A stretch of DNA of 64,000 bases from contig CP154954.1 in the NCBI GenBank assembly GCA_039621445.1, positions 6,111,693 to 6,175,692 on the forward strand, given 5' to 3'. The stretch is from Euglena gracilis. Lineage: Eukaryota. Made by a program: the position numbers and the translations under genes. Shown in pieces: positions 9,101-57,200 of this stretch. Each line of letters starts with the position of its first letter. Position 1 is the first letter of the stretch. The notes under the pieces were generated by a model that was not told the DNA's origin, did no database searches, and saw nothing but the letters and a program-made list of their open reading frames with translations.

Positions 9101-12100
9101 AGGCTGGCATAAAAGGCATTTAGAATGTTTCCTTTGCACAATCACGCAAACCGTTGCTGTGCACAATTGCACAAAAGAACAATGTTTTTGCTGCAATGTG
9201 GGTCTCAACATTAGTGGCTAACCTGCTACCGAGCCAAAATGGTAACTGGTGAAAATCCTCGAGAGTTTTCAGAGTTCTCTGACAATGCGTTTCAACCTGA
9301 AAAAACCACATACACTCCTTTCACAACCAAACTCAAAAGCTTCCGCGGGGCTGTAAGCCAACATCGTCACTGCCTGGTGTCCATACCAGAACTCCCATTT
9401 TGCAAAACCATTGATGTTGTCAATCAATACCAAAACGTGGCCCTTCCCGCTGGGTTTTACCGCCGTAAAACGGTGAAGACAGAGGGCCAATGCGCAAAAA
9501 AACACAAAGACAAAACTCGCGTTCCATTCCACAAATGCGCAAGGAGACAAAACACAACAAACGAAATGCAACATCGGACGTCAAAGGGCCGGGGGCTTGC
9601 AATTCTATAAATTTATGACATTTTGATGACTTCAAACGAACTCAAAATTGGACCATATGATAATGCAGACACACGCATGTGCACACACCCACACCCACAC
9701 ACCCACACACCCACACCCACACCCACATGCAAAAAGCCCACAAGGGGTGATTTTGATCGAACAGAGAGGGGCAGGGTCTGTGTGGAATGGCTGGGAATCG
9801 CGGCTGGCGGGGCTCGTCCATCGCAAGGCTCCAGGACGTTGTAGTCGGGTCCCTTCCAGTGTTTTTTTTAAAGACCCCAGGGGGGAGGAGCGGTTCCAAA
9901 ACCCTCCAACCACCCAGCCTGGGTGCCGAACCCAGGGGGGAGCCCCCCCAAATCGGGCCATCTGAGGGCATTTCCCTAAAAAATTTTGGCGCTTCGCGCC
10001 AAAACCCCTCCAGCCTGGGACCCCCCCCCAGGGGTGCTGGGCTTCCCACACACCCAGGGTATTTTTTAAGACTGGGGGGGGGTCCCCCCACCCACCCCTG
10101 GGGGGGAGGGTCCGGGGGACCCAACCCACCGTTACCCAAAATGGCCAAAAAAAAGCTGCGAAAAATGCTAAAAATAGCACCCTTTTCAAAAAAATTTCGG
10201 CGCCGTTGGCGCTGAAAAGTGTATACCACCCCCCTCTGTGCGGACCCAGCCACCCTACTCCCCCCCCCGGGGGTCCAAGACTAAAAAAAAAACCCCTGCA
10301 CCCACCCCTCCCTCCCCGGGGTGGTTTTCTGGCTTAAAAAAGAACCCTGGCCCCTGCAAACTCATACTTTTGCAGGAGGCTAACAATATATATATGTATA
10401 TATATAGGCTAACAATATATATATATATATATATATATATATATATATATATATTATATATATATATATATATATATATATATATATATATATATATATA
10501 TATATATATATATATATATATAGATATATATATATATATATATGCACTGGGAAAAACAGGATGCCAACAATATATTTATGCACTGGCAATACTAGTCAAC
10601 TCAGGTTTCCAAATTAAAGAAGGTGTAAAAAACAAAGTGGGAAAATAAATAAACAATGAACAAAAATGCAAAATATGAAATACTAAATAAACAGAAGAAT
10701 GGTGCAAAAAAGCAGTGAAAAGAAAGGTATAACTGGAAGACAAATGAACACACACTAACGGCAACGTCACATTCGTGGAACTTTGTTTCTTTCTGTCGTG
10801 ACGGAAGCCTGGGACAGGATAAAATCGATCCTGCCACCCACGCAATGACACAAGATATGTTCCCCTTACGTTTGGATGATTTGGCCACGAAAGATTGTCA
10901 ATGCAGTACAAAATTGTTACAGAAAAAAAATGAGAAAATCTTATTTCTAACGCAGGAGGGATGTGGAATGGAATGGAAAGGAAACACAAACGGATGGCAA
11001 ATGCATCTTAATCTTAGTTCTAGGGTTAGGGTTAGGGTCTAAATCTTAGTTCCTGGTCTTGGACAGGGAGCGGGAGATATTGGGGTGAATTGGGGTGGCC
11101 CGCAATTTGACTGGAGAGCCTTTCACCCCCAGTGGTTCCCCCCCCCACCAAAGCCTGTCGGCGCTTCATGGTTGACATCACATGGGTCCACACTTCACAA
11201 GAAAATGAGAAATGCTTCAATTTGGAGAAGCAGCTTTGAGCAAGTGAGAAGTGTGGAGCGGGCTGCGAAATAAACCCCAGGCAGGCACTACCCCCTCTCG
11301 AAAGTCCAGCGAAAAAACGGTTGTATGTTCCCCAGAGTCCGCTTCCCATTAGAACCTGCCTCTGGGAGGGAGGGGGCGGTTTGCGCGGGGGCCGAGGGGC
11401 AGCCGAGGGGGCAGGGGCCCGGGTGATTGCGGCCCGCACGGCCCGCTGCAGGGCGGCGACGTCCAGCGGCTCCGCCCCCTCCGCGGCCGCCGGGTCGGGC
11501 CCCAGCGCTGCGGCCGCCTGGGCGGTCCACGCGTGGCGCTGGCGGAGCTCCGCCCGCAGCCCAGCGGTCCCCGGCAAGGGAGGGACACCCGGCGGGGGTT
11601 GGAAGCCGGCATTTGTTGGCGCGCGTCCGTCAGCGAACTGGGAAGCCAAGCTGGGGGGGGACAAAAGCTGCGTTCGGTCAGAAAAAAAGTCGGGGGAATA
11701 CCATTACTGAATGACAAGAGGCCTCACAAGAAGTCCAGACAGTCCACCCAATTACGAAAATAATGATGGCTTTGGACCATTTCTGCGAAAGTTATTCTCG
11801 TGGAGTCAATGTCACGTGGGGAACTTTTGGCAACTCCTTGCCGACCTCCCCCCCCAGGGGGTGAGCCAAAATCAAATCAACGGTCTGCCTAGCCCTTGGT
11901 CTCATTCAGTAGGACGCGGCGCCGCTGTTCTGTGGTGTTGATGGCAGGCATTTACTCCGGGGGAAGTCCAAACCATAACCCTTGGAGGCGGGCTTCACAA
12001 GGGTATTTCAACAAAGCACATTGGGGAATGGGGTGGGGACTCGGTCGTGCCTGGCTGAGGAGGTGCTCTGCCACGGTACCTTCGGCTTGGACGTAGTGCA

Positions 12101-54262: not shown

Positions 54263-57200
54263 AGCGCCCATCGCCCACTCCGTGCAGGCGCGGCGGTGCG
54301 CGGCGGGCAGCGTGGCGCAGCCCCGCCACGCGTGGGCCGAGCTGCCGGGGGAGACCGCGCCGGCGGGGCGGGGCGGCGGGGTGGGGGAGGGGGGTGGGCA
54401 GGGTTGACGGCTTCTGTTTGAGACTTCCAGAGGGGGGAGAGGCCACCCACCCAACACCGGCGCAGACCCTGCCGGGGGGGGGGAGGTTCTCCCAGGGGGG
54501 CGGGCATCCCCCCAAACAAAACGGGCCGTCTAGGGCATTCCCCCCCACAAAAAATGCGGCGCTGTGCCCGAAACGTACTGGACCAGGGGGGAGGAAAAAA
54601 TGCAACTTGGCCCTTCAAATTATGCAAGTCAAAAAAATGCAAAAAAATGCAAAAAATTGCAAAAAAATGCAACTTGCAAAAAAACCCTGAGAAAACCCTG
54701 AGAAAAGGCTGGAATGTAACAGAGTTGCTGCCAATGATCCATAGACATGTGATAATGCCGGTGTATACCTGTCAATGATTCACAAAGAAGACCTCCTTGA
54801 AGACAACAGCAAGCACTGAGACCCCAAAAAGCCCAGGCAACTGCAGAGGGACCAGAGACAAAACATGACATTGGCGACCAACTGCAAAAAAGTTTTCCAG
54901 GACAAAATATTTTATGCAAAAAATGCAAAAAAAAATGCAAAAAATGCAAAGAAAGTGCAAAAAAATGCAAACATATGGCGACCAACTACAAAAAAAATTT
55001 CCGGGTCAAAATATTTTATGCAAAAAAATGCAAAAAAATGCAAAAAATGCAAATTTCGGAAAAACCTGATTATGCAAAAAAATGCAAATTATGCAAGTTG
55101 CATTTTTTCCCTCCCCCTGACTGGACCCACCCACCCCTCCCCCCTCCTCCCAGGGGGCTTCCGAGTGAAAAGAAACCTGGCTGGGGAGGGGGTTCAATCC
55201 CCACCCGAGGTGGGGAAGATGCAGTAGGAGCCCCCAACCAGGGGTTTTTTTTAAGACCGGGGGGGGGGGGTCCCCCACCCACCCACCTGGGGGGCCCCGG
55301 GTCCCTACAGCGCTGGAATTACACCAGAGTTGCTCACCTGGCCAGGCGGAGCAACAAAAGAGCACCGGTGTAAGGGGTACCTGGCCACTCACCACACAGC
55401 AAGCTGGGCCAGAAGCGAAGTCAGCGCCGGCCATAAACAGACAAGAAGCCTTAGTGCACCTAAGGGGGGGGGGAGGGGTCCAGGGGACCCACAAAAAAAT
55501 GGCCGAAAAATAGCGAAAAGTGCTAAAAATGGCACTTTTTCAAAATGTTTTCGGCGCCGAAAAGTACATCCCCCCCCCCCCCCCCGGGGGACCCCCACCG
55601 GGGGGGCTCGACCGGACCCACCCTCCCCCCCCGGGGGTTCACGACTAAAACTAACCCCTGCCCCCAACCCATCATTCCACCAAACAGGATAAAATATATA
55701 TTTCGGCATATAAAAAAAAATCGGCACAAATTCAAAGACAGTCGGCATTGAAGAAAAAGGGAAAGGGGTGGTGGTGGTGTGTTTTGGGGCGGGAGGGGAT
55801 TCGGACCCACCAGGACAGGGGTGACAACTGCCCCGCGGCAGAATTTTGTGAAGATTCCAACACATGCGACAAATCGTAAATGTACGTGTGTTTTTTGGGG
55901 GGAATAGGTGACGCACAATCCAAAGTGCTTGGAAAGAATGCCCTGCTTTCCCAGACCCCCCCCCGTCCGAAAGGGAGGGTCGTCCACTCCCTGGGGGGGG
56001 GGGGCTGACCGCCTCCCCCACCCCCTGCGCAACGCCACCACTCAATCAGGTTTTGCCCACGGGGGGGGAGGAGGGTGAGGGGTGACGTCGGCCACACCCT
56101 GAAGGTCAGCCTGTCCTGGGCACCCCCGGGCTGGTGCGCAGCGTCCACAGAGGTGGGGGGCCGGCCCCTCCCCGGGCCACCACCTTGGAGAAGCTGACGC
56201 TCACGCCCTTCCCCTTGCCGTGCTTGGGGCTGCGGGACTGCGGAGGGGCCGGGGGGGTCCGCTTCACCGGGTGCAGCGCCGTCCGCAAGCTGGGCCGCCA
56301 GTCTGGCAGACTGGTGGTAGGCGAACACATGAGCCTTCTGTCTTGGAACCTTTCTGCAAAAAAATAGCATATAATGATAATATTAATATTTATTAATATA
56401 ATAAATGTTAATGAATATTAATATTTATAATAATAATAATAATAATAATAATAATAATAGTATAATAATAATAATAATAATAATAAAAACAACAACAACA
56501 ACAACAACAACAGCAACAACAACAACAACAACAACAACAACAACAACAACAATAATAGTAATAATAATGTAAATAATAATAATAATAATTGCTTACTAAA
56601 AAAATAATTATAAATATATACTATATGAAAAATAAACAACAACAACAAGGATAATGATTTGAAAAAAAGAACATGAATAAATAAATGAAGAAATAAATAA
56701 ACAAATAAACCCGCTGGCATATTAATCAGGCTGGAGAATTTCATGAGGACCCTTGGGGGGGCAGCTGGCTGGGGGAAAAATGCCGGCTGGGTCCTGGGGG
56801 GGGGGGAGGTCCTACCAGCTGCCGGGCTGGACCCGGCTGGTACCCAAAAACAGACAAAAGCACAGCTGGCTTGGATTTCTGGGTGAAAACTACCCCCCCC
56901 TATGTCCAATGACCGGTAACCTCTGTCCTCTGACCGGGGGGGGGGGGTGGTCGTTGGACATGGGGTCAAAAGAAAGTTGGTGGGTACCCGGGTCCCTACC
57001 CACCCAAAAATGCCCAAATTTCCCTTCCGGCGCTTTGCGGCGAAAATTTTGGGCAATTTTGACAAATTTTTGTCCAAAAAGTGTCAAAAATGGCATTTTG
57101 GCCAAATTTTTGGCCAATTTTTGGGCAAAATTTTTCGTCCCGGCGCTTCACGCCGGGACCAAAAATTTGGTCAAACCTCCGAAAAGGTGTCCTCTGACCG

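Follow-up and report, generated by a model that had tools for sequence, protein, structure and literature searches.

The 64-kb stretch of Euglena gracilis contig CP154954.1 analysed here (the window) contains two kinds of sequence that form the subject of this work, the non-conventional introns of a TRP-like gene and short elements with CAG...CTG ends, most of them flanked by an 8-bp target-site duplication (TSD). The elements are MITEs (transposable elements of miniature size with inverted repeats) in appearance. All the genes that could be mapped are on the minus strand and interrupted by long introns (Table 1). They were found by a Pfam scan that covered 453 of the 454 listed open frames of at least 75 aa plus one short frame (the list skips one short stretch), and by homology. 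An exon query matched the transcript-derived protein EG_transcript_820 (P0001), of which residues 794-1152 agree with the window exons at 100% in most blocks. Another window exon has an 88% match to a protein from a Euglena transcript labelled GGOE, which we take to be from E. longa. Intron type clusters by gene. The introns resolved in the TRP-like gene, 11 in number, are non-conventional throughout, and the GRAM/VASt gene has seven resolved GT-AG introns and a single non-conventional one. In this second gene 11 junctions were attempted and four were mis-anchored or unresolved, including 23208-23366, which was afterwards placed by hand.

Table 1 Introns, CAG...CTG elements and genes of the window, with positions counted from its first base
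Feature	Position	Strand	Remarks
Non-conventional intron, TRP-like gene	51539-52303	-	P0001 junction
Non-conventional intron, TRP-like gene	50953-51428	-	P0001 junction; 3 nt + CAG...CTG + 5 nt, then G; 7/8 repeat, split 5 and 3
Non-conventional intron, TRP-like gene	49844-50912	-	P0001 junction
Non-conventional intron, TRP-like gene	49200-49764	-	P0001 junction
Non-conventional intron, TRP-like gene	48789-49117	-	P0001 junction
Non-conventional intron, TRP-like gene	47575-48730	-	P0001 junction
Non-conventional intron, TRP-like gene	47054-47456	-	P0001 junction
Non-conventional intron, TRP-like gene	44900-46950	-	P0001 junction
Non-conventional intron, TRP-like gene	44538-44779	-	P0001 junction
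Non-conventional intron, TRP-like gene	44350-44496	-	P0001 junction; 3+5; end-to-end identity 6/8
Non-conventional intron, TRP-like gene	44154-44263	-	P0001 junction
Predicted first intron, MAPEG-family gene	3967-4659	-	3 nt + CATGGG...CCCATG + 4 nt; boundaries from reading frame only
Predicted intron, 3+7 unpaired bases	60345-60899	-	8/10 end identity; placed by frame and distant homolog P0008
MITE, CAGGCTG family	42244-42503		perfect 8-bp duplication; between end of TRP-like gene and start of phosphatase-like gene
MITE, CAGGCTG family	27638-27844		7/8 duplication; inside GT-AG intron 27496-27901 of GRAM/VASt gene
MITE, CAGGG-T-run family	55239-55660		perfect 8-bp duplication; outside mapped exons
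MITE, same family as 55239-55660	10055-10298		7/8 duplication; nested in 9857-10349
Older CAG...CTG element, host of 10055-10298	9857-10349		6/8 duplication; not cited as an element by the earlier note
MITE	21159-21671		terminal repeat complementary at 14/14; perfect 8-bp duplication; inside GT-AG intron 19936-22428; not cited earlier
MITE	39111-39558		6/8 duplication; between exons of phosphatase-like gene (position inferred), outside mapped exons
CAGAG element	46111-46807		perfect 7-bp duplication; inside non-conventional intron 44900-46950
CAGGGG element	54584-55119		perfect 7-bp duplication; outside mapped exons
CAGGGG element	41734-42023		perfect 7-bp duplication; between genes; not cited earlier
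CAGT...ACTG element, long inverted repeats	49995-50577		flanks TA only; nested in non-conventional intron 49844-50912
MAPEG gene	includes 3967-4659	-	Pfam scan of open frames
GRAM/VASt gene	includes 17142-29611	-	Pfam scan; homolog P0004
Histidine-phosphatase (phosphatase-like) gene		-	Pfam scan of open frames
TRP-like (ankyrin/ion-transport) gene, C-terminal part	44112-53848	-	13 exons, 12 junctions; P0001 match and Pfam
Second VASt-like gene	upstream of TRP-like gene	-	Pfam scan and homolog

The lengths of the 12 introns of the TRP-like gene were fixed by requiring that the joined exons reproduce P0001. The bases left unpaired at the two ends add up to eight (3+5) in nine of the 12 junctions and to nine (3+6) in two, the last one fitting neither. 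Among the 11 resolved introns the pattern N3-CDG...CH'G-N5-6 with paired ends was recovered by script in ten, the other being a CAG-TTG variant read by eye (one of the nine 3+5 cases), and the next exon begins with a purine in 10 of the 11. In ends, spacing and purine these introns are like the euglenid non-conventional introns described in PMC12501133, PMC3935182 and PMC4770533. Nomura et al. (2025, PMC12501133) give the code as 5'-N3CDG...CH'GN5-6/R, the slash preceding the next exon, and report a preference for a purine at the first base of that exon and only ~20% of transcript with a 4-nt spacer. They also state that splicing is good for fully synthetic introns that lack any repeat, and that non-conventional introns are the majority class in E. 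agilis (72%).

The seven elements of the earlier note (those starting at 42244, 55239, 27638, 10055, 39111, 46111 and 54584) and their flanking repeats were recovered exactly as it had described them. The elements of Table 1 fit MITEs in size and ends (207-697 bp, with 8-14 of 14 terminal bases complementary), being short, with terminal inverted repeats and a target-site duplication and with no transposase family in the open frames scanned. Counted within the window some of them form families of two members, 10055-10298 with 55239-55660 (76-85%), 27638-27844 with 42244-42503 (76-89% in two blocks) and 21159-21671 with 39111-39558, which have internal sequence in common. The commonest duplication is 8 bp, found in seven of the 11 elements with a recognisable one (6-8 of 8 bases identical). 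The element at 49995-50577, presumably Tc1/mariner-like, has only TA at its flanks, a palindrome that could equally belong to the terminal repeat. None of the cited or added elements interrupts a mapped exon; they are located within larger introns, between genes or outside mapped exons, and the term free-standing does not suit 27638-27844, inside a GT-AG intron, or 46111-46807, inside a non-conventional one. The cited MITEs are passengers in this window, a pool of possible future introns, and are not themselves introns.

A blind scan of all CAG...CTG pairs located 60-3000 bp apart whose 14 terminal bases were complementary at 10 positions or more also recovered the 8-bp duplication. In five of the 704 pairs there was an 8-bp repeat, either exact or with a single mismatch, against a mean of 0.56 by flank permutation (five was reached in 0 of 2000 permutations). 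Repeats of 7 bp appeared four times, three of them exact (1.36 expected, P=0.053), and of 9 bp once (0.14 expected, P=0.14). At a stricter complementarity of at least 11/14 (169 pairs) the repeat was of 8 bp in four and of 7 bp in two, while lengths of 6, 9, 10 and 11 bp did not occur. This count leaves out 27638, with its weak terminal repeat, and 39111, with only 6/8, and the scan added 21159-21671 (8/8) and 41734-42023 (7/7). A control with all kinds of termini was dominated by AT-microsatellite ends and was disregarded as artefactual.

If the cuts fall 3 nt ahead of CAG and 5 nt beyond CTG, the element leaves together with 8 nt, so that with an 8-bp duplication the net change is zero, in agreement with the arithmetic of the earlier note. 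Since precise removal of any kind must total the duplication length, the informative point is the total of 8, with 9 tolerated, for the spacers as defined genetically, together with the fact that 8 bp is also the duplication most often seen in the CAG...CTG elements here. The further proposal that any exonic insertion of these MITEs is immediately a perfect intron went too far. The duplication has a purine at base 6 in only 8 of the 14 orientations offered by the seven 8-bp elements. The element 42244-42503, suggested by the earlier note for a reporter exon, has this purine in one orientation only, base 6 being T in the minus sense. The same cut would cost the exon 1 nt at 7-bp elements and 6 nt, in frame, at the TA element.

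If introns were once such insertions, their ends might still carry the repeat, and the earlier note had suggested comparing the 8-mers at both ends. In this comparison the intron length sets the register, so the test is not circular, and the null was obtained by re-pairing 5' and 3' ends among introns. Over positions -5 to +2 the 11 introns have 41 of 88 bases identical against 28.0 +/- 3.4 (P=1.5e-4), and the five bases flanking this span on each side are at background (11 vs 12.2 and 12 vs 11.4). With six predicted introns added the figures were 62/136 vs 45.2, although these six, placed by frame, stem and more distant homologs, were picked with 3+5 in mind; prediction by the spacing rule alone was abandoned, as it left many equally good candidates for each gap. 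Seven GT-AG introns taken as control showed no excess (23/56 vs 22.8). Sets of 6-7 introns gave P values of 0.0, which are coarse and were not relied on. We also considered the exon consensus as a palindromic target preference, which found no support here: 13 of 19 have C at exon +3, but no more than 6 have G at exon -5.

Not one of 110 mismatched end pairs exceeded 5/8, and one true intron, 50953-51428, reached 7/8. Its junction reproduces P0001 and it was recovered independently by the blind element scan. No other intron of the window is as good a candidate for recent derivation from a transposon. An intron made of an element plus one copy of the duplication would have matching 8-mers at its ends; 1 of the 11 introns has 7/8 and another (44350-44496) 6/8, besides the overall excess. 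A published case has the same layout. Intron 4 of gapC was recently gained and is present in a single E. agilis strain (PMC4770533), and the supplement of that paper, read by eye, shows a perfect 8-nt repeat there: the five exon bases before the intron and the first three of the intron recur as the final five of the intron and the first three of the next exon, flush with CAT...ATG arms. The paper also gives a pyrimidine/purine consensus at both intron ends, as a duplication would give, and poses CAG(G)/(C)CTG as a possible fingerprint of the source sequence.

Taking together a geometry equal to the published code, an excess of identity confined to an 8-base span, one intron at 7/8 and gapC intron 4, the interpretation is partly supported. 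We infer that the non-conventional introns probably descend from cut-and-paste elements with CAG...CTG or CAT...ATG ends that duplicated 8 bp; that the duplication length set the spacing belongs to the same inference. Insertion would leave an element between two copies of the duplication, and its inverted ends would pair in the transcript as a stem. The splicing activity would then count from the stem, 3 nt upstream and 5 nt downstream, cutting after base 5 of each copy, so that the element and one copy would leave and ligation would restore the exon with a single copy. Drift of the intronic copies after fixation would leave a faint 8-base echo. The fit would be conditional: in the sense of the transcript base 6 should be a purine, pairing of the stem is required, and a 3+5 cut would not cleanly remove elements that have these ends but a 7-bp duplication or TA flanks. 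What can be observed directly is that the window has 8-bp-duplicating elements, introns with 8 (sometimes 9) unpaired bases and an excess of end identity in that span. For an insertion origin of the introns this evidence is supporting rather than decisive.

The 3+7 intron predicted at 60345-60899 would, if real, indicate that repeat length tracks the spacer sum even beyond the published code. The other irregular prediction, 3967-4659, was said to match the MITEs with 7-bp duplications through its 3+4 spacers, a parallel that did not hold up: its arms are CATGGG...CCCATG rather than CAG...CTG, its end identity is just 2/7 and its boundaries come from the frame only, even if the MAPEG frame is kept. 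Arms of the CAT type, outside the CDG code, are found both there (CAT...ATG, 3+4) and in 23208-23366 on the minus strand (CAT...ACG, 3+5), resembling in this respect the published gapC intron 4.

Several results speak against such an origin. The end identity is mainly at -1, 0 and +2 (22 vs 12.2 in the 11 introns), and the other five positions are not significant (19 vs 15.8, P=0.16; in 17 introns 29 vs 24.2, P=0.13). At these inner positions the excess vanishes without the 7/8 intron (25 vs 23.2), and 5 of the 11 introns are identical at only 2/8. None of the 11 shares terminal sequence beyond the first few bases with the MITE families of the window, within which the comparison was made, and the active introner system proposed earlier was not apparent here. 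The autonomous transposase sought along with it did not appear either, the Pfam scan of the 453 window open frames having returned no transposase family. By the P0001 alignment the junction at ~52445-53791 (minus strand) is not of the GT-AG type, and a 3+5 or 3+6 spacing does not fit it either; its best stem (13/15, CGT...ACG ends, read by eye) would leave 6 bases. P0001 differs from the window at two residues just downstream of this junction, and may come from another allele or paralog. Finally, a 7-bp duplication in three CAG...CTG elements and a TA flank in one mean that CAG...CTG ends and the 8-bp duplication are not tied together.

These last elements suit an alternative in which the splicing rule was a filter and not tuned. 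A fixed RNA endonuclease measuring hairpins at 3+5 would have pre-existed with some other role, elements of many duplication lengths would insert, and only insertions with 8 (or 9) bp duplications would survive in exons, the introns being still derived from transposons. CAG...CTG-ended elements with 7-bp or TA flanks coexist in the window as expected, and the good splicing of synthetic introns without a repeat (PMC12501133) suggests that the machinery does not read the duplication. However, both the need for CDG/CH'G triplets (PMC12501133) and a sum equal to the commonest duplication (7/11) would then be accidents, and we consider the filter unlikely. As for the claim that the rule is tuned to erase insertions, its geometrical part agrees with the published code and the direction of cause is the part left over: the data do not separate a rule shaped by the elements from one that merely filters them. 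The concentration of identity at -1, 0 and +2, with non-significant inner positions and no intron-MITE family link in the window, would also be expected if the sum of 8 arose by chance and identity next to the cut was kept by selection, slidable junctions forgiving one-base errors. We regard this as improbable, because an excess at +2 does not help sliding unless +1 matches too (it does in 2 of 11) and full 7/8 and 8/8 repeats flush with the stem are not explained by coincidence and selection. Slightly less probable still is that repair of double-strand breaks inserted DNA between short direct repeats and the pieces that happened to fold became introns. The authors of PMC4770533 ascribe the gapC intron 4 repeat to break repair by analogy with Daphnia, but repair would not account for a length of precisely 8, for a position flush with the terminal inverted repeat, or for the existence of free elements that have these ends and this duplication.

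Going back to descent from duplicating elements, a stronger version can be put forward only tentatively, and we would not bet on it. Excision might be a dedicated non-spliceosomal process, possibly assembled from parts of transposons, in which the 3+5 ruler (tolerating 6) is the cast of an 8-9-bp duplication. Many of the new insertions of CAG...CTG elements, still mobile, could then become scarless introns immediately and supply the majority intron class. If this were true, the unpaired bases of a young intron would give the duplication length of the parent element, even for the 3+7 candidate 60345-60899. The spacers of 3 and 5 nt had been defined genetically but not explained. Reading their sum as one duplication would explain together the spacers, the slidable junctions and the pyrimidine/purine consensus that the two ends share, and it names the class of element to look for.

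Other features of the window deserve a brief description. The element at 38224-38708 (CAGAG...CTCTG, 12/14 terminal repeat) has no recognisable duplication and hosts a fold-back element at 38328-38598. Inverted-repeat elements with other ends are found at 26489-27176, 33044-33604 and 38328-38598, either CTGTCA... or fold-back with TTAGGG-like repeats, and one TTAGGG-like fold-back element sits inside a TA microsatellite. A repeat family with G/C-run ends has several copies (17226-17870, 48544-48680 and 56893-57253) and a remnant within intron 47054-47456, immediately next to its 5' end. The 28-bp end of the TA-flanked element (50552-50579) occurs again at 34669-34696, and a short frame upstream of it (region 34380-34696) presumably resembles the tail of a Tc1 transposase, with no Pfam match. 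The GRAM/VASt gene carries in its final exon, at 6257-6285 (minus strand), about five TAACCC telomere-type units that are in frame and translate as an LT repeat that is missing from the P0004 homolog. The ankyrin-bearing N-terminal part of P0001 has no match in the window, and what lies upstream of the TRP-like gene is the VASt-like gene; this may reflect a truncated paralog, a chimeric transcript or an assembly join.

As the earlier note acknowledged, a MITE-like origin of these introns had been suggested before, by Milanowski et al. (2014, PMC3935182; 2016, PMC4770533), in PMC12501133 and in PMC11282704. In 2014 no transposable elements had been identified in euglenids (PMC3935182). The review by Mikina et al. 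(2024, PMC11282704) gives the introns terminal inverted repeats at +4 to +6 and -8 to -6, frequent TSD-like repeats and a likely derivation from MITEs. Its accessible text gives no duplication length, superfamily or arithmetic, but Fig. 3D may draw the repeat in this layout. We did not find in the literature a statement that 3+5 is the duplication length, subscription papers, figures and supplements being largely beyond the reach of the search. In the accessible texts the words TSD and duplication occur 0 times in PMC12501133, as do duplication and target site in PMC3935182, and PMC11170887, PMC12621601 and PMC12455990 have nothing on the sum. A scan of metagenomes with the terminal-repeat motif gave 119 loci, none resembling the window, which we consider chance matches. 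The reading of 3+5 as 8 is not a new kind of system; it sharpens the published MITE-origin hypothesis into a testable form.

With regard to known transposons, an 8-bp duplication and CAG ends fit the hAT superfamily, and the seven elements with 6-8 of 8 identical bases have such a duplication. The 7- and 8-bp sets of the window are also like the P superfamily, with its duplications of 7, 8 or 9 bp (PMC3698922), and two Merlin families with 8-bp duplications have been described in E. gracilis (PMC8101967). The open frames scanned in the window yielded neither a hAT transposase nor a THAP-domain P transposase that would assign the elements to a superfamily. Among intron systems, multi-copy intron families shared with a mobile element define introners, and 0 of the 11 introns match the termini of the window's MITEs, a weak test made within the window only. 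A parallel is offered by the introner elements of Micromonas, Amoebophrya, Polarella and Fritillaria, as presented in PMC11282704, which are also MITE-like and whose removal from the RNA takes one copy of the duplication along. Those introners carry or co-opt spliceosomal splice-site dinucleotides, whereas the Euglena cut lacks a dinucleotide mark and is measured from the paired ends.

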